From positions 1 through 64,000 of IMG/VR virus record IMGVR_UViG_3300036985_002432: DNA of 64,000 nt; one strand, given 5' to 3'. The DNA is from a virus. Both the position numbers and the translations under genes were made by a program. Every line of letters starts with the position of its first letter. Within the stretch, counting starts at the first letter, position 1. This document shows, piece by piece, positions 1,254 through 36,388 of the stretch. The notes beneath the pieces are model-generated. The model was not told where the DNA came from, ran no database searches, and was given only the letters and a program-made list of their open reading frames with translations.

Positions 1254-1532
1254 ATGGAAAACCAACAAGAAACTGAATTAACTGTAGAAGAGTTAATGCA
1301 AAAAAAAGAAGAGATGTTACAGTTTTATACTGAATCTCTACCTTATTTAGAAGCACAAGCTAAGTATGAGAAACTACTTGCTGAGATTGATGAGTCTAGA
1401 TTTAAAAGAACTAGTATTCAAATGCAGTATGCTATGATGGCTCAACAAGATCAAGAGCATCAAGAAACTGGAGAAAGATACAAGATGGAGGAAGAAGAAG
1501 TTTCTACAGAAAGAAAATTAAAAAAATCATAA
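1254..1532 (+). CDS. Hypothetical acidic coiled-coil protein
   Basis: First ORF after the promoter; E/Q-rich helical sequence. Confidence 0.75.
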   Translation: MENQQETELTVEELMQKKEEMLQFYTESLPYLEAQAKYEKLLAEIDESRFKRTSIQMQYAMMAQQDQEHQETGERYKMEEEEVSTERKLKKS

Positions 1533-9427: not shown

Positions 9428-9542
9428 TTAGCTATATAGTGCCAAAAATAATTTTTAAAATAATGAATATTTTAAATTTTAGAAGTTTATTTGTATAGAA
9501 TTATGTATATTAAATTAATAACCAATAATAATAACCAACAAT

Positions 9543-10784
9543 ATGAGTGAAGATAATAATGCACAGAATCTTACAACGGTAAGTGAAGTAGATGTAGACT
9601 TAGATGCAATGTTTGGAATGCCAGGTGCAGAAAATGTAATGTTACCAGATGATGGTAAAGAACCTGAAAAACCAAAAACAATGTTTACTAAAGAGATAGT
9701 AGACACCACGTTCCTTGACACACCTGGTAAAGAAGCCCCAAAGGTAACGGCACAGGAAAAAGTAGAAATTAATGAGACTATAGATGAACTTAATGGTTTA
9801 ATCTCTCAAGAAGAAGATGCTGGTAATAAAGGTAGACCAAAGGTTGATAAATCTGGACTATATGAATTAGCACAAAAAATGATTGAGGAGGGTAGTTTAG
9901 TAGGATTTGATGATGATAAAGATCTAGAAGATTATACTACTAAAGATTTTAGAGAGTTGTTTGAAGCTAATTTTCAAGAAAGAGAAAATAAAGTTAGAGA
10001 GAATACTCCAAAAGAATTCTTTAATGCATTACCAGAAGAGTTACAAGTAGCAGCTAAATATGTTGCAGATGGTGGACAAGACCTTAAAGGGTTATTTAGA
10101 TCACTTGCACATGTTGAAGAAATATTTGAATTAGATGCAACAAATGAAGATCACCAAGCAGAAATAGCAAGACAGTATCTTTATGCAACTAACTTTGGTG
10201 ATTCAGATGAAATAGAAGCTGAAATTGAAGATTGGGCAGATATGAATAAGCTTGAACAAAAAGCTAAACAGTTTAAGCCTAAGTTGGATAGAATGCAAGA
10301 AGAGATTATTGCTAGACAACTTGCAGATCAAGAAAATAAAAAACAACAACAAGCTCATCAAGCAAAACAATACATGGATAATGTATATGATGTATTATCA
10401 GTAGGAGAATTAGGTGGTGTAAAACTTGATAAAAAATTACAAAGCATGTTATATACTGGATTAGTACAACCTAACTATCCTTCTATATCAGGAAGACCTA
10501 CTAATATGTTAGGACACCTTTTAGAAAAGTATCAGTTTGTTGAACCAAGACATGATTTAATTGCTGAGGCATTATGGTTACTTGCAGATCCAGTTGGATA
10601 TAAAGCAAAGTTACAAGAACAAGGCGGTAAAGCAGCTACAGAAAAAACTGTAAGAATGCTTAAGACAGAAGAAGCAAGAAAAATATCTTCAACTTCAAAT
10701 GAAGAAGAAGAAAACAAGACTAGAAAAACAGGACAAAGAACCATACCTAGACAACAAGGTGGTAGTATGTTCAGAAGATTTTAA
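9543..10784 (+). CDS. Acidic scaffold-like head assembly protein
   Basis: Very acidic helical protein between portal and major capsid protein, as in the crAss-like capsid module. Confidence 0.6.
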   Translation: MSEDNNAQNLTTVSEVDVDLDAMFGMPGAENVMLPDDGKEPEKPKTMFTKEIVDTTFLDTPGKEAPKVTAQEKVEINETIDELNGLISQEEDAGNKGRPKVDKSGLYELAQKMIEEGSLVGFDDDKDLEDYTTKDFRELFEANFQERENKVRENTPKEFFNALPEELQVAAKYVADGGQDLKGLFRSLAHVEEIFELDATNEDHQAEIARQYLYATNFGDSDEIEAEIEDWADMNKLEQKAKQFKPKLDRMQEEIIARQLADQENKKQQQAHQAKQYMDNVYDVLSVGELGGVKLDKKLQSMLYTGLVQPNYPSISGRPTNMLGHLLEKYQFVEPRHDLIAEALWLLADPVGYKAKLQEQGGKAATEKTVRMLKTEEARKISSTSNEEEENKTRKTGQRTIPRQQGGSMFRRF

Positions 10785-12429: not shown

Positions 12430-12442
12430 TATGTCAAACTAA

Positions 12443-12476
12443 GTGAGGGGGGTAGCAATACCCTTCTCATTTTTTT
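12443..12476 (+). terminator. Intrinsic terminator after the major capsid gene
   Basis: GTGAGGGGGGTA-GCAA-TACCCTTCTCAT stem with a GNRA loop, then a T run. Confidence 0.9.
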
Positions 12477-12509
12477 ATTTTTTAAAAACCAATAATTAAA
12501 ACCAACAAA

Positions 12510-13523
12510 ATGAGTTACACACACATTGAAATGACAAAAACAAATAAGTCAAGTGCAATTAGCATTAAACCTTATTTTGATAATTCAGCATCTAACATGG
12601 GACTAGAATCATATGGTCTATGTTTATTTGACGGAGTTAAACACCATGAACAACTAGGATGTACTGAAAGAAACGGAGTAGTACAATACCTAACAGGATT
12701 AAATGAATTTGCACCTGAGATTAAATTGTTAAAAGATCCAGAAGTAAAGGCAGCAAAGATTAAAGAAATTAGAGTAGCAGTTGCTGAGTTAGAAACAGAA
12801 TTAGCAGCTAATGTTTTAGATATTGAAGACCCATTGTTTTGGAATAATGTAGTTTTACTTAAACCGGATAATGCAGAATTTTGGAATAAGATACATATAT
12901 CATGTGGTAATGATCCAGTATTCTTAGACCCTACTGATCCATTTGACAGAATTAAACTTTATGCAATTGAAAATGGAGGCTTCTCTATAGTTGCTAGAAG
13001 TTATGATGATGCAAGATCAAAAGCTGTACCACCTAAATTTTATTTAGATAAAGTTGAGGAAACAGTTACTATTAAAACTGAATACAAAAAACTTAGAAAT
13101 AAGGCACTTGCCGAATTACAAAAATTGTATGACAAGAATAGTGTTAAACTATTTTATATTGCAAAAGCAGTGGATACAACAAGTGTACAATATAAAAAAA
13201 CAACACCTAATGATGTTATCTATGACAACATGGATAGACATATTAATGGTGAAGGTACTGAAGGAAATAAGGAAAGAGCTGCAAAAGGTTTCTTAGAAGC
13301 TGCACAATTGGATATGGAAACATTAAAAATTAAAGCAATTGTAAAAGATTCCGTATTTTTTAAGTATATTATTAATAAGGCAGATGGACATATTTATCAT
13401 GCTGCAACAAGTACGTTGTTAGGTAGAAATGTTTCTGATGTTATTGAGTTTCTCAAGAACCCAATGAATGAGGATATATTAAAAGATATGAATCAGAAAA
13501 TTGAGAAGCTGTGGAATATGTAA
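12510..13523 (+). CDS. Capsid-module protein of unknown function
   Basis: 337-aa ORF directly after the major capsid gene, matching crAss-like synteny. Confidence 0.65.
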   Translation: MSYTHIEMTKTNKSSAISIKPYFDNSASNMGLESYGLCLFDGVKHHEQLGCTERNGVVQYLTGLNEFAPEIKLLKDPEVKAAKIKEIRVAVAELETELAANVLDIEDPLFWNNVVLLKPDNAEFWNKIHISCGNDPVFLDPTDPFDRIKLYAIENGGFSIVARSYDDARSKAVPPKFYLDKVEETVTIKTEYKKLRNKALAELQKLYDKNSVKLFYIAKAVDTTSVQYKKTTPNDVIYDNMDRHINGEGTEGNKERAAKGFLEAAQLDMETLKIKAIVKDSVFFKYIINKADGHIYHAATSTLLGRNVSDVIEFLKNPMNEDILKDMNQKIEKLWNM

Positions 13524-17472: not shown

Positions 17473-19005
17473 ATGAGTTATTTTAATCATGCCTTCCAGA
17501 AGACCTTTGTTGGTACTAATGGATTTACAGGATTGGCAGAAGGAAAATTAGGTACTCCAGGAAATATTCTTGGTGGTGGTCAATTTGCTTTTGTTGATGC
17601 TAAAACTTGGACTGTTCTTGCAACTGATGCAGACCCAGGATGTTGTAACCTTGTACTAGCTGCAGGTTCTATTTATGCTAATGACAAGATTGGTCCTTTC
17701 CATGGTGGTTATTTAGAGTCTAACAAATCTAAGGAAATCAATCCTAAGTATGTTAACCGTTTCTACCGTGTTGATCCATGTGCTCCTTCAGCTAATGTTA
17801 TCCATGTTGGTAAAACTCCATACACAGATGACCGTGCTTTATCTTTAGCTATTACTAATGCTGGTGCAAATATTGAAGATGGTGTTTATACTGATATTCC
17901 ATTAACTGATACTACAGCTCCAACAGGATCTGGACTTATTGCTACTATTACAGTAGTAGGTGGTGTTGTTACTTTTGTAGAAATTACAAATGGTGGTACA
18001 GGATGGGTAACAGGTGATGTTGTTACTACAGTAGATGAATTACTTCCAAGTGATGGTGGTGTAGTTACAAATCCTACATTTACAGTTACTGCAGGTGTTG
18101 GTGCTGATTGCTGTATTCCTTTTTATTGTGGTGAGACTTACTCTTTACGTTTAGATGTTAAAGGTTCTCCAGCTCTACGTTATTTAAATCACAATGCATA
18201 CTTAATTGCTGATGCTTACACAGGATGTTGCCCAACTGGGTCAATCACTCCAACAGAAGTTGATTCAACTTTAGTATATATTAACTGGGCTAATGCAATT
18301 GTTAGATCCCCATTAATTAATCCATTCATCTTACCAGTTGTTATTGATGAGTCAGGTGTTGCTTGGTATGCTCCAGGAACAGATGCTGCTTTCTTAGCTA
18401 ACTTTGGTGTTGATACTTGGGATCATTATGTATCCGCAGGACACGTAGATGGTGATTGTGGTGGTATGGTACTTAACGGTGCTTATGTAGATACTAAATT
18501 TGGTGATTGTACATTCCAAATTTCTGATTTCTATGAAAAAGAACCAGTTAGACTTTATGCATCTTTAGTTGACTTAAATGGTGATCCATGTGAGTTTGAA
18601 AGTTTATGTGTAATTACAGAGTGTGCTGGTCAACAAGCAATGGGTCTTGGTGAATCAGTAGCACGTGATGTAATTTTATCAGAAGCTTACCGTCAAAACT
18701 TCTTTGCAACAGACTTAAGAATACGTGAGATTACTCAAGGTACTTCAGTTTGGAATTATATTAACCGTTCTGCATTGTATACAAGATATTATATCCAACA
18801 CAATGTACCACGTTTTAATAATCCTTCATCTACATTTGATAATGACCAATACTTGTTAGAAGTTATTACTAATGGACAAGTTGCTGTTTTTGAAACTTTT
18901 GTAACAAGATGGTTAGCTGATTGTTCTCAATGTTCAGGATTGGATATTGTTAAATGTACAGGACCATGTGTATCAATTGTTCCTAATGTTAATACTTGGG
19001 ATTAA
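17473..19005 (+). CDS. Abundant virion structural protein (auxiliary capsid-like)
   Basis: High-expression codon usage; own promoter-like motif and terminator; internal beta-rich ITNGGTGW module. Confidence 0.6.
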   Translation: MSYFNHAFQKTFVGTNGFTGLAEGKLGTPGNILGGGQFAFVDAKTWTVLATDADPGCCNLVLAAGSIYANDKIGPFHGGYLESNKSKEINPKYVNRFYRVDPCAPSANVIHVGKTPYTDDRALSLAITNAGANIEDGVYTDIPLTDTTAPTGSGLIATITVVGGVVTFVEITNGGTGWVTGDVVTTVDELLPSDGGVVTNPTFTVTAGVGADCCIPFYCGETYSLRLDVKGSPALRYLNHNAYLIADAYTGCCPTGSITPTEVDSTLVYINWANAIVRSPLINPFILPVVIDESGVAWYAPGTDAAFLANFGVDTWDHYVSAGHVDGDCGGMVLNGAYVDTKFGDCTFQISDFYEKEPVRLYASLVDLNGDPCEFESLCVITECAGQQAMGLGESVARDVILSEAYRQNFFATDLRIREITQGTSVWNYINRSALYTRYYIQHNVPRFNNPSSTFDNDQYLLEVITNGQVAVFETFVTRWLADCSQCSGLDIVKCTGPCVSIVPNVNTWD

Positions 19006-19619: not shown

Positions 19620-19638
19620 CCATAAAAAACCAACAGAT

Positions 19639-19824
19639 ATGGCAACTTGCTTAAATTGTAAAAAAAATCTTTCATGTGGATGTCAAAAGAAAACTGCATC
19701 AGATGGAAAATCAACATGTGCTACATGTATAACACAATATGAAATTAGTTTAAATAAAAAAGTTTTAAACCCAACAAAACCTACACCAAGTCAAGTTTGG
19801 GCAAATAATAATAGTAAAAAATAA
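19639..19824 (+). CDS. Small Cys-rich protein
   Basis: CLNC-x4-SCGC...CATC. Confidence 0.65.
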   Translation: MATCLNCKKNLSCGCQKKTASDGKSTCATCITQYEISLNKKVLNPTKPTPSQVWANNNSKK

Positions 19825-22019: not shown

Positions 22020-23660
22020 ATGAAACCTGTTAATTTAAATACAGCCCCATGTTCACCAGTTTCAAGTAACTGTGTAATATGGCAAGGACCAAATATTCCG
22101 TGTATCAATCTATGTAATGGAGATACAGTATCTGATGTAGTGTTTGCATTAGCAACAGAACTATGTGGAATATTAGATACATTAAATGTAGCTAATTATG
22201 ATCTTTCATGTTTTGGTATTACAGCATGTGGACCAAATGATTTTCAAGCATTAATTCAATTCTTGATTGCTCAAATATGTGCACTTCAAGGTGTTGTACC
22301 AGGTGAAATTAAAAATACTACAGACTGTCCAGATTGTTTAGTAACTGTAGCAGATTGTTTTGTTGAAGGTAATCAAACTACAATGAATCTTACTGATTAT
22401 GTAAACATGATTGCTGCAAAGATTTGTAGTATCATTGATCAGTTAGCAATTATTAATGCTACACTATTAAGCTTAGATATTAGAGTAACTACTTTAGAAA
22501 ATGAACCAGATCCTACATTTACAATTCCTTCATATGAAATTGGTTGTATAATTGGAACATTACCTTCTGGTGGTACATTTGGAATTGATGAAATACTTGA
22601 AGCATTTACAAATGATGTATGGTGTGATTTTTATACAGCTACAGGAACTACTACTGAAATACTTGCTGCAATAGCTGCTGAATGTATTTTAGGAACAGAT
22701 CCTTCAAGAGCAAATCCTGGTGTAGATATGGAAATTGCTTATCCATCATGGAATCCAACATCTAATACTTTAGCTAGTACTATTAATCATATATGGATTG
22801 CTTTATGTGATTTATATAATGCATCTATTACAGTTGCAGATACTAGTACAATTGATTTAACTTATACAGGTGGTTTATTAACAGCAAGAATAATTGATAC
22901 AGGTTGGATAAATTTAGAAGGCTTTACATTCTATGATATGGCAAAAACAGGTTCAGCTGCTTTTAGACCACAATGTAGACGTATTGGTAATGTTGTACAT
23001 TTTAGAGGATTACTAACCGTTCCTTTAGCTTCAACATTAGGAGGAGCTGCACTAACTTATGGTTATCAATCATCACCTGGTTATGATAGTTATTTTGCAG
23101 CACCTTATGCATACACAGCAGCTACAGGAGTTGGTAGTTGTGTTATTGGAACCGGTGGTTTTATTACATTTAATCAAGGAAATAGTGTAATACCTGCAGG
23201 AATATTATCTGTAGGAGAAACGCTTGATAAAACATATGGTTTAGGTTGGAAAATTGCTGTTAGACCTATTGATGTAGGAGCTACAAGTACTATGTTAACA
23301 AGTCTTGCAAGTGTTGGTATTAATTCAAATGGAGATTTAGAATGGGGGGTTACAACTAATACTGAAGAAAGTGTAGTATCCGGAGGAACAGGTTCATGGA
23401 ATACATCACCAGTAAATTATATTCAATCCATTGTAACAAATGGAGATCATGTTCCAAAATTTTCTAATGGTTTAAGTGTATATGATGCAGCAGCTGCAGG
23501 TGTACAACCTACAGAATTATTTTATGATGCCTCAATATATCCTTTTAGTGTTAATTCAACTCTTGCAGAACAACTAGGAGGTTTAGGTGTAAGAATAGAT
23601 GGATTAACTTCATTTATTAATCCATGTACTGTATCTACTATTACTGGTATAATCTGTTAA
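22020..23660 (+). CDS. Putative tail fibre protein
   Basis: Cys-rich N-terminal domain, coiled coil (LDIRVTTLE), DTGWINL...RRIGNVVHFRG fibre-tip-like motif. Confidence 0.65.
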   Translation: MKPVNLNTAPCSPVSSNCVIWQGPNIPCINLCNGDTVSDVVFALATELCGILDTLNVANYDLSCFGITACGPNDFQALIQFLIAQICALQGVVPGEIKNTTDCPDCLVTVADCFVEGNQTTMNLTDYVNMIAAKICSIIDQLAIINATLLSLDIRVTTLENEPDPTFTIPSYEIGCIIGTLPSGGTFGIDEILEAFTNDVWCDFYTATGTTTEILAAIAAECILGTDPSRANPGVDMEIAYPSWNPTSNTLASTINHIWIALCDLYNASITVADTSTIDLTYTGGLLTARIIDTGWINLEGFTFYDMAKTGSAAFRPQCRRIGNVVHFRGLLTVPLASTLGGAALTYGYQSSPGYDSYFAAPYAYTAATGVGSCVIGTGGFITFNQGNSVIPAGILSVGETLDKTYGLGWKIAVRPIDVGATSTMLTSLASVGINSNGDLEWGVTTNTEESVVSGGTGSWNTSPVNYIQSIVTNGDHVPKFSNGLSVYDAAAAGVQPTELFYDASIYPFSVNSTLAEQLGGLGVRIDGLTSFINPCTVSTITGIIC

Positions 23661-23671
23661 AATATAAAAAT

Positions 23672-24337
23672 ATGTCTTGTTCAACTTGTAATAATAAAAA
23701 TTGTAATAACAGCACTAAGTGCGGATGTACTGATAGTTATTTAACATCACCATTACCTTGTCCTACTCCTGTAGACTGTCCTGAAGCACAGCCATGTTCA
23801 GAAACATTTGATTCACAATGTATTATATATACAGGAGATAATATTATATGTGATACTACTGTTGTAGTAAATACAGATACTAATATAGAACAATCTTTAA
23901 ATAGTATAGTAGATTATTTTTGCACTGAGATAGCAAATATCCCAGTAGTAATTGTAGAAGCTGGAGAGGGTATTGAAGTTGTACCAACTGTAGTTGGCAC
24001 TACTACAACTTATACTGTTTCAACTACAGGTGTAAGGAAGTATGTTCAAAGTTTTGATAATGTTGTATTTGAAAATGTAACATTAACTGTTTTGGGTCTT
24101 GATCTTGCAGCATGTGGTTTAATAACTTTAGGTTGTAGTAATGTCACATCTATAATTGAATCAGCAGATTTTGTGTATAATATTATGTTTTTTAATTCTG
24201 GTTTAAATAAATGGATAAGTCTTATGAATGAACCAACTTTATTAATTTCATCAGATGTCATAACAGGAAATATTACTTTTTATATAGATACGGCTACTGC
24301 AGAACCATTTACAGTACGTATAACAATCATTGGATAA
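23672..24337 (+). CDS. Putative fibre-associated Cys-rich protein
   Basis: ATG at 23672 (MSCSTC...) preferred; N-terminal CIIYTGDNI domain resembles the upstream fibre; VEAGEGIEV motif. Confidence 0.65.
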   Translation: MSCSTCNNKNCNNSTKCGCTDSYLTSPLPCPTPVDCPEAQPCSETFDSQCIIYTGDNIICDTTVVVNTDTNIEQSLNSIVDYFCTEIANIPVVIVEAGEGIEVVPTVVGTTTTYTVSTTGVRKYVQSFDNVVFENVTLTVLGLDLAACGLITLGCSNVTSIIESADFVYNIMFFNSGLNKWISLMNEPTLLISSDVITGNITFYIDTATAEPFTVRITIIG

Positions 24338-24342
24338 AAGAA

Positions 24343-24409
24343 GTTACAGTTTGTTGGTTTCTGTGACAAACACAAGGATATCCCCAAGGCGTAAATCTTG
24401 GGGATTTTC
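24343..24409 (+). ncRNA. Candidate structured RNA: stem-loop (loop UUUGUUGGUUU) plus terminator hairpin
   Basis: GTTACAG/CTGTGAC 7-bp stem with one G-U pair; loop complementary to leader motifs elsewhere in the window. Confidence 0.4.
24380..24409 (+). terminator. Probable intrinsic terminator
   Basis: ATCCCCAAGG-CGTAAA-TCTTGGGGAT followed by a short TTTC tail. Confidence 0.65.
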
Positions 24410-24434: not shown

Positions 24435-25220
24435 ATGTTAACAAGAAAAAGATTATTTTATGACATTGAAACTTCATTTTGTCAAGGCACTTTTTGGAGA
24501 CCTGGTTATGATCAAACAATACATCCTAATCAAATTTTAAAATACGCACAAATTATTTGTATATCATGGAGTTGGGAGGGAGATGACAAAGTACATCATT
24601 TAGATTGGGGATTAAAAAAACAATGTGATAAAGAATTATTAAAAGTTTTTATAAAAGTATTAAATGATGCAGATGAGATAGTTGCACATAATGGAGACAG
24701 ATTTGATATAAAGTGGATAAGAACAAGAGCACTATATCATGGATTAGAAATGCGTCCACATTATAATAGTATTGATACTTTAAAATTATGTAAAACTTAT
24801 TTAAGTTTACCAAGTAATAAATTATCTGAAGTTGCAAGATATTATAATCTTACTGCTAAGTTAGATCCCGGAGGTTTACAAACATGGATTGATATTGTAA
24901 TTAATAAAGATAAAGAAGCAATGAAAATAATGTTGCATTACTGTGATGGTGATATTGTAACATTAAAAAAAGTATATGAGAAGATAAGAGTATATACTAA
25001 ACCTAAACTTAACTATGCTGTATTAACCGGTGGTGATAAATATGAATGTCCAGAGTGTGGCCATACTACAATTTATATAAATAAAACTTATACAACAGCT
25101 ATGGGAACTATTAAACATCATGTAAGATGTAAGAGTAAAATATGTAGAACAAGTTTTACTATTAATAACAAAGCTTACATGGATTATTTAAGCTTTAAAA
25201 GAATAAATAATATAAAGTAG
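24435..25220 (+). CDS. RNase H-like DEDD 3'-5' exonuclease with C-terminal Zn ribbon
   Basis: ExoI FYDIETS, ExoII AHNGDRFD, ExoIII YCDGD; CPECG...C-x4-C. Confidence 0.85.
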   Translation: MLTRKRLFYDIETSFCQGTFWRPGYDQTIHPNQILKYAQIICISWSWEGDDKVHHLDWGLKKQCDKELLKVFIKVLNDADEIVAHNGDRFDIKWIRTRALYHGLEMRPHYNSIDTLKLCKTYLSLPSNKLSEVARYYNLTAKLDPGGLQTWIDIVINKDKEAMKIMLHYCDGDIVTLKKVYEKIRVYTKPKLNYAVLTGGDKYECPECGHTTIYINKTYTTAMGTIKHHVRCKSKICRTSFTINNKAYMDYLSFKRINNIK

Positions 25221-26537: not shown

Positions 26538-27574
26538 TGGATTTTAACTACACACTACGTTACAGAACCTTTGATCAATTGTTTGAAGATGTTACTGTAG
26601 ACTTTGCTTCATATGCTTTAGAGAATATGATTGAACCACAACAACTTATTAAAGTTGCTAAACGTGTTACATATGATCTTGGCCTTAGAGTTAATATGAC
26701 TAAAGAAGTTTTATTAGAAGTATGTAATGGTAAAGTAAAATTACCAGATGACTTCTTTACATTTAACTTTGCATTTGTATGTGGAGATTATACAGTAAAT
26801 ACTGGATATGATATTGGTGGTACTAATATTCAAGAAGTACCTTATAGAGAAGTTCCTGCAACTGTAAATCAATGTGCAGCACCTACAGTAAATTGTTCTA
26901 CATGTAATCACAATCCATGTAATAATACTGCAGCATGTTTAGGTTCAGATAGACCACCATCATATTTACCTGGAGAGTTTGATCCAAATAGTCCATATGG
27001 TGATACATGTATTAGACCAAGAGTATTTTTAAATTGTAAGGGTCAAGCATATGAATTAGTGCAAATTGTAAACTCATCTCAAACTAGAACTTACAGTAGA
27101 CTAGTATCATTAAGAATGAAACCTAGTCAAGAAATAGAATGTGATTGTCCTAATCTATATTATGATTCACCTAATGAAGGTTGGATTAAAAATGGATTTT
27201 TATATACTACATTTCAACATGGTAAAGTATATTTAAACTATCAAGGTGCATTAGAAGATGATGATGGAAACTTATTAGTACCAGATCATGATTTACTAAA
27301 TGAATATTATGAGTATGCACTTAAACAAAGATTGCTTGAAAACTTATATATGAATGGTGAAGATGTATCACAAAAGTTAGGGTTAGTTGAACAAAGACTT
27401 AAGGCTGCTAGAAACAATGCTTTAAGCATGGTTAACACACCTAACTTTGCTGAGATGAAGAAACTATGGTGGACTAATAGAAAAGCTATGTACGGTAAGT
27501 ATTATGATATGTTTAAGTCATATCCAATAAATAGTATTTATACAAGAAACTACGGACCAACAACAATTTTGTAA
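26537..27574 (+). CDS. Putative tail tubular/ring protein with a Cys-rich insert
   Basis: VKLPDDF, GKVYLNY and DDDGNLLVPD motifs; TAATG coupling. Confidence 0.6.
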   Translation: MDFNYTLRYRTFDQLFEDVTVDFASYALENMIEPQQLIKVAKRVTYDLGLRVNMTKEVLLEVCNGKVKLPDDFFTFNFAFVCGDYTVNTGYDIGGTNIQEVPYREVPATVNQCAAPTVNCSTCNHNPCNNTAACLGSDRPPSYLPGEFDPNSPYGDTCIRPRVFLNCKGQAYELVQIVNSSQTRTYSRLVSLRMKPSQEIECDCPNLYYDSPNEGWIKNGFLYTTFQHGKVYLNYQGALEDDDGNLLVPDHDLLNEYYEYALKQRLLENLYMNGEDVSQKLGLVEQRLKAARNNALSMVNTPNFAEMKKLWWTNRKAMYGKYYDMFKSYPINSIYTRNYGPTTIL

Positions 27575-35800: not shown

Positions 35801-36388
35801 CCTACAATTGCAGGATCAAATATATCAAAAGGTGCAACTGAACTACCAAATAAATTAAAAAATCTTAATTGGAAGCCAACAACTGAACTTAATTATATGG
35901 GTAAACCAACAACTTCAATACCTTTAAATGATGCAGGTCTTTCAATAAATAGAAGACTTCCTTTTTCTAATAGATATGTCTCTGTAGATCCACAAAAATT
36001 AATGAATAATAAATTTCAATGGTCAACTGCAGGTTCAGGTGTTCAAAATTTAGCAGAAAAATATGCAAGTACAAACGGAATCTTTGGTGGTATTGGATTA
36101 GGAGCAGTGGGTTATGGAGCTCTTAAAGAAGGTCAAAATCCAATTAGTGTTTATAATACAGTAAATCCACTTACAGGTAATAAAAAAGGATATGATGCCT
36201 ATACATTAATGGGAGAAAATACTTTTAAAAAATATATATCTAAACCAAATCCTTATTTTATTAGAGATATTGGTCAAGGAACAGGTTTAATTGAAAAAGC
36301 TGATGGAGGTTCAATTGAAATGGATGTAGATGATGATATGATACAATATCTATTATCACAAGGATATGATGTAGAAGACATTTACTAA
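32816..36388 (+). CDS. Modular virion cargo protein with Zn ribbon and zincin (HExxH) domain
   Basis: CKKC...CHKC; LPHEISH...ETRARL; modules separated by xxGG linkers. Confidence 0.7.
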   Translation: MSYNRKVLKTATKELGKAKAPAKPKDIIIDPMGQWKYPGQNTRIPGSNITMQNVSYPVWAQPNVGPGAMMYPEQEYQFPGADYVDEFPQGSNEDYYEDELDEEQIAELRAGGYTVEDISVPSVGNYKQGGSLLTKKVACKKCGWKWDAADGGDDVTTCHKCGGEGLIHAQTGFSSPYYSYGDKKYMKKSNDWLVDYNGKYVPLSKNVAARSTELNKNAKYVPAKTLEKSPYQLQQEAKLKSGQSNYDMMASNKPQVADNTKVVKNKIASLSELAAAEAIKKEFVETEKKIKNDFNNTTQYYEDYHKSPMYKSMLNNSMRDWGWAKEDPSNISEGRSQNLKSLESPTVLKVQPTGEDENTGGWSSGSTGNITVTPLGYKVQGILPHEISHSIDRPLHRWSDRLIPTKDIAAINKFKPKNFITSLEFQNLSSSDQKMILNNPEDEYVKEYVKNKEEWNDYVGTPTETRARLNDIRMQSKFKGVYDPFTQKVSPDIYKKLLNTPFEKDKNEGFDALKQLKGIYTDKQIQWMLNNISKNQEQNQENIEQGVARKGGSLKKYSRSLEATNKLFHVSPLLKKAKSKKKKIFDPSSSYFQDGGFLPQAQFGLNVDENGKPIYYTEEEYRHMSEANQRGDVGTESNPTVTDEVTVKAQGPDWAKYEKEYLSKQSRDQFIADKKREYIKRQKNLNRLAGVTMDNFPEEVERNFGNRFDYNKNSYITRRLGKQDHFNPKRRGEWIDELTPTERKIVADSKYGSKLQPNLWKTSLAGLQELGNAAIKASTFGIVNKDVLKNRISGLTKKEQAEIANSNTGALSTMDFIDLAGAGISNFGFNRGLSTGSDYKELPSWSSGELMPNVTRTHATLMNPLNLIALGELTAGKSLLGLGANQLKQFGKTAPGLMKEVPTIVKSVADASYMGMRPRKLYSPLNLISRYGKKVEGNITPLGNVLKRTIHNDAIGEPISWGNRTWKSVTGKPIAQNLLKERPGATNNIFSMQVDPTIAGSNISKGATELPNKLKNLNWKPTTELNYMGKPTTSIPLNDAGLSINRRLPFSNRYVSVDPQKLMNNKFQWSTAGSGVQNLAEKYASTNGIFGGIGLGAVGYGALKEGQNPISVYNTVNPLTGNKKGYDAYTLMGENTFKKYISKPNPYFIRDIGQGTGLIEKADGGSIEMDVDDDMIQYLLSQGYDVEDIY

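Follow-up and report, generated by a model that had tools for sequence, protein, structure and literature searches.

A covarying 3′-UTR hairpin and complementary start-codon boxes: a candidate antisense regulator of assembly genes in an uncultured crAss-like phage

RESULTS AND DISCUSSION

At the end of the fiber operon of an uncultured, crAss-like phage, a short hairpin followed by an intrinsic terminator displays a loop that is exactly complementary to a box at the start codons of a few of the phage's own genes. Both partners are conserved among relatives, the box is specific to those genes and lies close to their starts, and the hairpin is a structure of the gene strand. The explanation we favor, with somewhat better than even confidence, is that the element is a 3′-UTR antisense regulator that would occlude the start regions of tagged assembly genes, which lack Shine-Dalgarno (SD) sequences. 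How translation is tuned gene by gene without SD pairing is poorly understood. If the proposal is true, it would describe a compact and testable circuit of one 8-nt seed and four tagged genes in more than 100 uncultured phages, add a new family to the RNAs that can be annotated and open a way into how head assembly is timed. It might also account for the start-associated sequences of mycobacteriophages, which have long lacked an explanation.

Source phage and probable host

The window (the whole stretch of DNA analyzed) is the first 64 kb of a 92-kb IMG/VR virus contig; genes are cited here by the position of their start codon. Every long open reading frame of the window lies on the + strand, and the gene order runs from terminase and portal through an acidic scaffold-like gene (9543) and the major capsid protein (10813; PHROG 11589, E 1.5e-32) to tail and fiber genes, with giant virion proteins encoded past 27.5 kb. 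A search of the window for tRNA and tmRNA genes returned none. The earlier note on this DNA had placed the phage in a host lineage that largely lacks SD pairing, and the start regions are indeed largely SD-less, with an SD-like 4-mer at 1 of 53 starts. Asparagine codon use in the genome is skewed to AAT (1398) over AAC (299).

A TAnnTTTG box of the Bacteroidota type (TACATTTG, 1224-1231) lies 30 nt 5′ of the ATG of gene 1254, and it is kept as TATATTTG in about 35 ortholog loci of that gene. Taken together, the SD-poor starts, this box and an exonuclease gene that is 71% identical in DNA to Flavobacterium phages make it likely that the host is a member of the Bacteroidota, with Flavobacteriia the probable class. 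A tblastn search of a phage collection with a mid-operon anchor protein gave no cultured match, and the best cultured match of the capsid protein was Leptolyngbya phage Lbo-JY46, at 28.6% identity. Because neither protein pointed to a close cultured relative, we rejected a transfer of the published transcript data of phage phi14:2 to this genome; the abundant noncoding RNAs of phi14:2 map elsewhere, to g004-g006. Although phage Lbo-JY46 (PP438436.1) carries the annotation of a cyanophage, its GC content of 31% and its A-rich, SD-less leaders resemble those of the source phage. As an outgroup, it carried neither box nor hairpin in the 36 kb examined.

A hairpin-terminator module at the end of the operon

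Two hairpins form in the 97-nt spacer that separates the stop of the last fiber gene (24337) from the ATG of an exonuclease gene (24435), with -26 kcal/mol and a z score of -2.95 on the + strand (Table 1). The first hairpin presents the 11-nt loop UUUGUUGGUUU. The second has the features of an intrinsic terminator, with five GC pairs in its stem and TTTT directly 3′, at the end of the transcription unit. The G-U pairs had been read in the earlier note as favoring the + strand, and this was borne out: on the - strand the spacer folds with a z score of -2.03 and the first hairpin is lost, and the G.U-rich stem covaries in relatives. None of the covariance models of Rfam 15, c4 antisense RNA included, reached its gathering score anywhere in the window.

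Table 1. Positions of the hairpin-terminator module and of the boxes at start codons in the window
Feature	Position	Strand	Description
Seed hairpin	24343-24367	+	7-bp stem GUUACAG/CUGUGAC with one U.G pair, 11-nt loop
5′ arm of stem	24343-24349	+	GTTACAG
Loop	24350-24360	+	TTTGTTGGTTT
3′ arm of stem	24361-24367	+	CTGTGAC
Spacer	24368-24379	+	Single-stranded, A/C-rich, AAACACAAGGAU; (U)RACAA-type in relatives
Intrinsic terminator	24380-24409	+	10-bp GC-rich stem at 24380-24405 and U tract
Box, gene 12510	12499-12509	+	AAACCAACAAA; 11/11 complement of the loop; abuts the ATG of the post-capsid gene (12510-13523)
Second copy, gene 12510	12486-12493	+	AAACCAAU; wobble-compatible; in the leader
Box, gene 9543	9533-9541	+	AACCAACAA; separated by 1 nt from the ATG of the acidic scaffold-like gene (9543-10784)
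Second copy, gene 9543	9520-9527	+	AACCAAUA; in the leader
Promoter-like sequence, gene 9543	9505-9512	+	GTATATTA; upstream of the gene
Box, gene 19639	19627-19635	+	AAACCAACA; in the 19-nt intercistronic spacer before a 61-aa Cys-rich gene (19639-19824)
Box, gene 1254	1259-1268	+	AAACCAACAA; inside codons 2-5 (E-N-Q-Q) of a 92-aa gene (1254-1532)

Related IMG/VR loci (about 150) were retrieved with the flanking proteins and the anchor protein (17473-19002) at 41-99% identity to the queries, and a covariance model was built from 30 hairpins. This model (R1) scored the window hairpin at 51.3 bits and found one strong copy per genome in five long contigs (G000-G004; 36-51 bits). Among the related loci, 54 of one set of 80 and 23 of another set of 46 (77 in total) have exactly one match, always on the gene strand; the other 26 and 23 loci apparently end before the expected site or have the site just past the 10-kb flank. 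Among the related loci, no complete genome that clearly lacked the hairpin was found, and distant members of the clade, with 35-55% protein identity, keep both box and hairpin.

Where the window has GUUACAG/CUGUGAC, relatives have stems such as GUCGCAG/CUGUGGC, GUUGCAG/CUGUAAC, GUCGUGG/CUACGGC and AUUGCAAG/CUUGUAAU, and single stem pairs vary among CG (12), UA (10) and UG (3) or among GU (14), AU (6) and GC (6). Covariation was computed on two sets of 30 and 54 relatives, 29 and 34 of them distinct. In these, 90.5% and 93.6% of stem cells are paired, and the covariation scores of 0.40 and 0.37 (versus 0.29 and 0.27 shuffled) were reached by none of 500 shuffles; with slid partners the score is at most 0.10. 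The frequent G.U pairs, which leave A.C mismatches on the other strand, place the structure in the + strand RNA. Covariation in these alignments marks the hairpin as a genuine RNA structure of the + strand. Its loop behaves differently from its stem, which covaries: the core GUUGGUU(U) is invariant in the 77 relatives found by the model, so that the loop conservation on which the earlier note had made its proposal depend is present. The loop is the same 11-mer as in the window in most relatives, and variants only alter the 5′ flank (GUUG, UUAG, UUAAG, UUGG, GAAGG or UUUAG) or lengthen the loop.

A 17-mer composed of CAG, the loop and CTG had 114 matches in IMG/VR, and 69 of the 79 that were checked are the full hairpin with terminator. 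In 596 Gb of species-representative genomes of bacteria and archaea, the same 17-mer was matched 86 times, which is close to the chance expectation, and none of these matches is the hairpin-plus-terminator element. A bacterial counterpart was rejected on these two grounds, and the hairpin is phage specific.

The hairpin starts 4-9 nt past the stop of a fiber gene whose sequence is otherwise unrelated between relatives, and the 90 nt 5′ of it contain no conserved promoter or motif in 30 relatives. This constant distance from the stop of a hypervariable gene, together with the lack of a conserved promoter block upstream, argues that the hairpin is a 3′-UTR element of whichever gene closes the operon. 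The idea that the RNA is processed from the 3′ end of the fiber operon thus held in part: the element does lie in the 3′ UTR of the last fiber gene, but no conserved processing signal or promoter accompanies it. The hairpin begins so close to the stop codon, less than one ribosome footprint away, that ribosomes translating the last gene would have to open it again and again. The terminator differs wholly in sequence between relatives, yet a GC stem and a U run are always present in the same place. On the 3′ side of the module, most relatives have a promoter-like box and then the ortholog of gene 25282; relatives carry TATATTTG and then TAGTATATTA after the hairpin terminator.

Two other readings of the module were discarded. 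As the leader of a minus-strand gene, the reverse copy would serve a frame of only 16 codons, with an unconserved upstream gene and a stem containing A.C mismatches. A pseudoknot, in which loop bases UUGUUG would pair with CAACAA in the spacer 3′ of the hairpin, could form in some relatives but not in the window or in many others.

A conserved box at the starts of four genes

The earlier note had placed an 11/11 complement of the loop directly before the ATG of gene 12510 and partial copies at genes 9543, 19639 and 1254, and all of these are present at the coordinates it gave, as is the hairpin (Table 1). Genes 9543, 12510 and 19639 belong to the same operon, and gene 1254 lies in another unit, about 23 kb from the hairpin. 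It is the position of the box, not its count in the whole window, that is significant. Allowing up to one mismatch, the 11-mer occurs 9 times in the window versus 4.4 expected, which is not significant (7 of 100 shuffles reach 9). By position, AACCAACA occurs in 4 of 53 start windows (-20 to +15) versus 0.068 expected, a count reached by none of 5000 composition-preserving shuffles; enrichment near starts relative to shuffled sequence had been proposed as a check and is thereby confirmed. The copies inside genes that had been raised as a caveat do exist, near 35903 and 43589, and have no evident function.

Orthologs of 22 window genes were mapped in 80 loci, and 40 nt around each start were taken. 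Of the distinct leaders, 44 of 46 in the 9543 family, 45 of 46 in the 12510 family and 33 of 52 in the 19639 family contain the motif AACCAAC, which ends 3-6 nt upstream of the ATG. The other 19 families, capsid protein and portal included, provide about 500 distinct leaders, and not one of these contains it. In the ortholog leaders of the three box-bearing families, the conserved box is AAACCAAC(A), 0-6 nt before the ATG; most variants of the 19639 family read AAACCAAU, and the commonest leader variant, CCAAU, still pairs via G.U wobble. The box of the 1254 family lies in codons 3-5, where ACCAAC is kept in 30 of 38 distinct ortholog starts and the asparagine codon is AAC, rare in the genome, in 33 of 38 distinct sequences. 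Some 9543 orthologs have an extra copy just past the ATG, in a reading frame that differs between orthologs. These copies in differing frames, the fixation of a rare AAC codon and the preference for a variant that keeps wobble pairing all indicate that the box is under nucleotide-level selection.

Many leaders contain a second or third copy of the box. In some relatives, the leader of the 12510 ortholog has three tandem CCAACA copies (L120:4130-4176, L137:2815-2860), and such a triple-box leader could be a high-affinity target or a sponge.

The contexts of the box are diverse: a short 5′ UTR after the promoter-like GTATATTA in gene 9543, a post-terminator stretch in gene 12510 and an intercistronic spacer in gene 19639. 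What the three have in common is a start codon, not a promoter, and this range of contexts points to a signal at the level of translation rather than to a promoter element.

The tagged genes themselves offer few clues. Searches of PHROG, Pfam and PDB sequences with the products of genes 1254, 9543, 12510 and 19639 gave no match. An AlphaFold model of the 12510 protein has a mean pLDDT of 60, with its N-terminal half unmodelled, and Foldseek found no match to it in the PDB at E <= 0.001. The 61-aa protein of gene 19639 has the pattern CxxC...CxC...CxxC; it is encoded by a real open reading frame that a 70-aa cutoff had missed, and 75 of the 80 related loci keep it. The major capsid gene is followed immediately by a strong intrinsic terminator (12441-12466; a 14-bp GC-rich stem and a U run), and because this lies upstream of gene 12510, that tagged gene must be read from read-through transcripts. 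A promoter-like box, (TTTT)nGTATATTA, precedes genes 9543, 22020 and 25282 and is conserved in relatives; a promoter-like box also lies upstream of gene 24435. The promoter-like GTATATTA before gene 9543 matches the promoter reported upstream of gp092, the equivalent of gene 9543, in phi14:2 (bioRxiv 10.1101/2020.03.07.982082).

Predicted pairing between loop and boxes

Duplexes between the loop and the four starts are predicted at -12.4 kcal/mol (12510), -12.3 kcal/mol (19639), -12.1 kcal/mol (1254) and -10.8 kcal/mol (9543). For the loop against all starts in the genome, the mean is -4.8 kcal/mol (sd 1.7), and the four targets are among the five best. The remaining strong duplex (-11.4 kcal/mol) involves GACCAACAACAA at 27553-27564, which lies 12-23 nt before the ATG of gene 27576, inside the end of the upstream gene, and is unconserved (1 of 31 ortholog leaders of 27576). 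Cofolding of a 75-nt RNA with the target starts gave a net -7 to -12 kcal/mol, versus 0 to -4.9 kcal/mol for six control starts, and the target leaders are predicted to be unstructured.

Covariation between loop and leader, which the earlier note had named as a test, is absent. Loop flanks change to UUAG, UUAAG, UUGG or GAAGG without matching changes in the leaders, apart from an isolated, suggestive flank match (e.g., L238), and the 8-nt seed is invariant on both sides. Duplexes formed within a genome are no stronger than those formed across genomes (-10.35 versus -10.33, -10.35 versus -10.44, and -10.09 versus -10.01 kcal/mol), a comparison that is uninformative since the seed never varies. 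With no covariation between the partners, the link between loop and box rests on their co-conservation and exact complementarity. An invariant seed would fit a loop that serves four to eight target sites, and would equally fit two independent external partners. Geometry also bears on the extent of pairing: with a 7-bp stem and an 11-nt loop, 11 pairs would need opening of the hairpin, and probably only some 7-8 would be sterically easy. An rRNA partner or mimic was rejected for both box and loop, because the 7-mers of neither occur in the Flavobacteriaceae rRNAs examined (two 16S and one 23S), which stand in for a host that is itself deduced.

Proposed mechanism and alternatives

In the mechanism we favor, the 3′ UTR of the late virion operon would carry a regulatory RNA module in which an A/C-rich spacer joins a hairpin to an intrinsic terminator. 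The invariant seed GUUGGUUU, displayed single-stranded within the loop, would pair over 8-11 nt with the box AAACCAAC(AAA) in the ribosome landing zone (-12 to +15) of genes 9543, 12510, 19639 and 1254. Such pairing would occlude the start and block binding of the 30S subunit, so that translation of these genes would fall as the 3′ end of the operon accumulates. Occlusion is the likeliest effect because the messages are SD-less, with open A-rich leaders, and the duplex would lie between -12 and +15. From this arrangement we infer that the partners pair in vivo, that the result is repression, and that a short RNA processed from the transcript acts in trans. More tentatively, and with distinctly less confidence than we attach to the antisense role, we suggest that hairpin and boxes could constitute a self-contained "start tag/anti-tag" translation circuit, in which a small set of phage genes would bear a tag private to the phage and independent of SD pairing, all of them being controlled through one loop at the end of an operon. 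Such circuits may be a widespread and unrecognized class of phage control.

An alternative hypothesis, which we consider rather unlikely, is that the pairing of loop and box is real but that the hairpin activates or stabilizes its targets, either within a long polycistronic mRNA or in trans. A/C-rich leaders might be shielded from endonucleases, for example, or the 3′ end might be brought to the start regions, as is done by the 3′ translation enhancers of plant RNA viruses. The hairpin shares one transcription unit with three of its four targets and has no separate promoter; its position 4-9 nt past a stop codon means that terminating ribosomes would open it and so couple it to translation of the operon; and some leaders have two or three boxes. 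All of this would suit an activator. However, the leaders are already unstructured, which leaves nothing obvious to activate, and the target in gene 1254 is in another unit, about 23 kb away. Furthermore, the duplex (-12 to -1, or +6 to +15) would sit inside the 30S footprint, where duplexes block initiation in known cases.

It is less probable still that box and loop have nothing to do with each other, the box being an autonomous start signal for a host or phage protein or the ribosome and the loop being kept because something else binds it, for instance an RNA-binding protein acting where the operon ends, so that their complementarity would have no role in pairing. Both elements are invariant and do not co-evolve, as an unchanging external partner would have it, and published start-associated sequences have likewise been proposed as protein or RNA binding sites (PMC3203893). 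On the other hand, an exact complement of 8-11 nt between what are the two most conserved noncoding motifs of the genome would be unlikely to arise by chance. The Flavobacteriaceae sequences examined contain no rRNA complement, the leader variants are mostly compatible with wobble pairing, and the loop is single-stranded on a covarying stem, as antisense seeds are.

We regard as highly improbable a third possibility, that a DNA-binding regulator of the phage recognizes the motif in double-stranded DNA, in one orientation beside the genes it controls and in a single inverted copy at the end of the operon. All sites do share the same 8-11 bp as DNA. However, it is the ATG that fixes where they lie (at -3 to -6 or in codons 3-5), not a promoter; one of them takes up an intercistronic spacer of 19 nt; and the stem around the inverted copy has compensatory and G.U changes that make sense only in + strand RNA. 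Finally, a chance likeness in an A-rich genome, with the hairpin a mere accessory stem of the terminator, fits the whole-window count of the 11-mer (up to one mismatch), which is within the range of shuffles, but has next to no credibility, being contradicted by the four start windows (0.068 expected, 0 of 5000 shuffles), by a box that about 50 distinct relatives keep at specific genes and that is missing from all of about 500 other leaders, and by an invariant loop on a covarying stem.

Comparison with known systems

Small RNAs derived from 3′ UTRs, of the CpxQ, DapZ, SroC and MicL type, are cellular, usually cut by RNase E and dependent on Hfq. Like them, the candidate regulator is the 3′ end of an mRNA that shares its intrinsic terminator, and it has a short conserved seed complementary to the initiation regions of several mRNAs. 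Two features of such RNAs are found here: the conserved seed is single-stranded, and its conserved complementary sites occur at several starts, the fourth of them in codons 3-5. The element differs from them in being viral, in targeting its own virion genes, three of which are in the same operon, and in its SD-less setting. GibS and MasB of Bacteroides thetaiotaomicron are Hfq-independent, trans-acting small RNAs that are chromosomal and have their own promoters. They resemble the phage element in directing an exposed loop or single-stranded seed against SD-less start regions; unlike them, it is an element of a phage whose Bacteroidota host is deduced, and it has no sequence relation to either RNA.

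Among phage regulators, the c4 antisense RNA of P1 and P7 and the related CI RNA of P4 are cut from a polycistronic transcript and block ribosome access (PMC12197685). The likeness to c4 lies in an exposed short sequence complementary to repeated sites in the phage's own mRNA. c4 RNA, however, has its targets downstream, acts on an antirepressor of temperate-phage immunity and is an Rfam family, whereas the element described here lies at the 3′ end of an operon, has assembly genes as putative targets and has no match in Rfam.

The closest likeness in layout is to the start-associated sequences (SAS) of Cluster K mycobacteriophages, asymmetric repeats 3-7 bp before the starts of a conserved subset of genes (Pope et al. 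2011, PMC3203893). They include a single reverse copy away from any start, and they have no known function, with an RNA or a protein proposed as partner (PMC3203893). In both systems, a repeat before ATGs is accompanied by one copy in the opposite orientation off any start. The SAS is a 13-bp sequence, GGGATAGGAGCCC, with an SD core; it precedes 10-19 nonstructural genes and is often joined by 17-bp inverted repeats (PMC3203893). Unlike the SAS, the box has 8-11 nt, lacks an SD sequence and marks three or four virion genes, and its reverse copy is in the loop of a covarying hairpin. The 13-bp SAS consensus with its SD core does not describe the box, which is AAACCAAC(AAA) in a window where 1 of 53 starts is SD-like. 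By sequence, the element belongs to none of the 3′-UTR-derived small RNAs, c4 RNA or SAS, and the literature searched describes no RNA regulator in crAss-like or other Bacteroidota phages.

Variable genes next to the module

The genes on either side of the module vary between relatives. The fiber C-terminus gene (23624-24337; equivalents in L107-L253) is unrelated from one relative to the next while the hairpin stays fixed 4-9 nt past its stop, a pattern suggestive of receptor-binding ends being swapped as cassettes in front of an unchanging 3′ module. On the other side, comparison with most relatives shows the DEDD exonuclease gene (24435-25220) to be an insertion, placed after the hairpin terminator and before the 25282 ortholog. 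Part of it (about 24443-24725; query 2424-2706) has 71% DNA identity to exonuclease genes of Flavobacterium siphophages, which suggests a recent exchange of this gene within the Flavobacterium phage pool.
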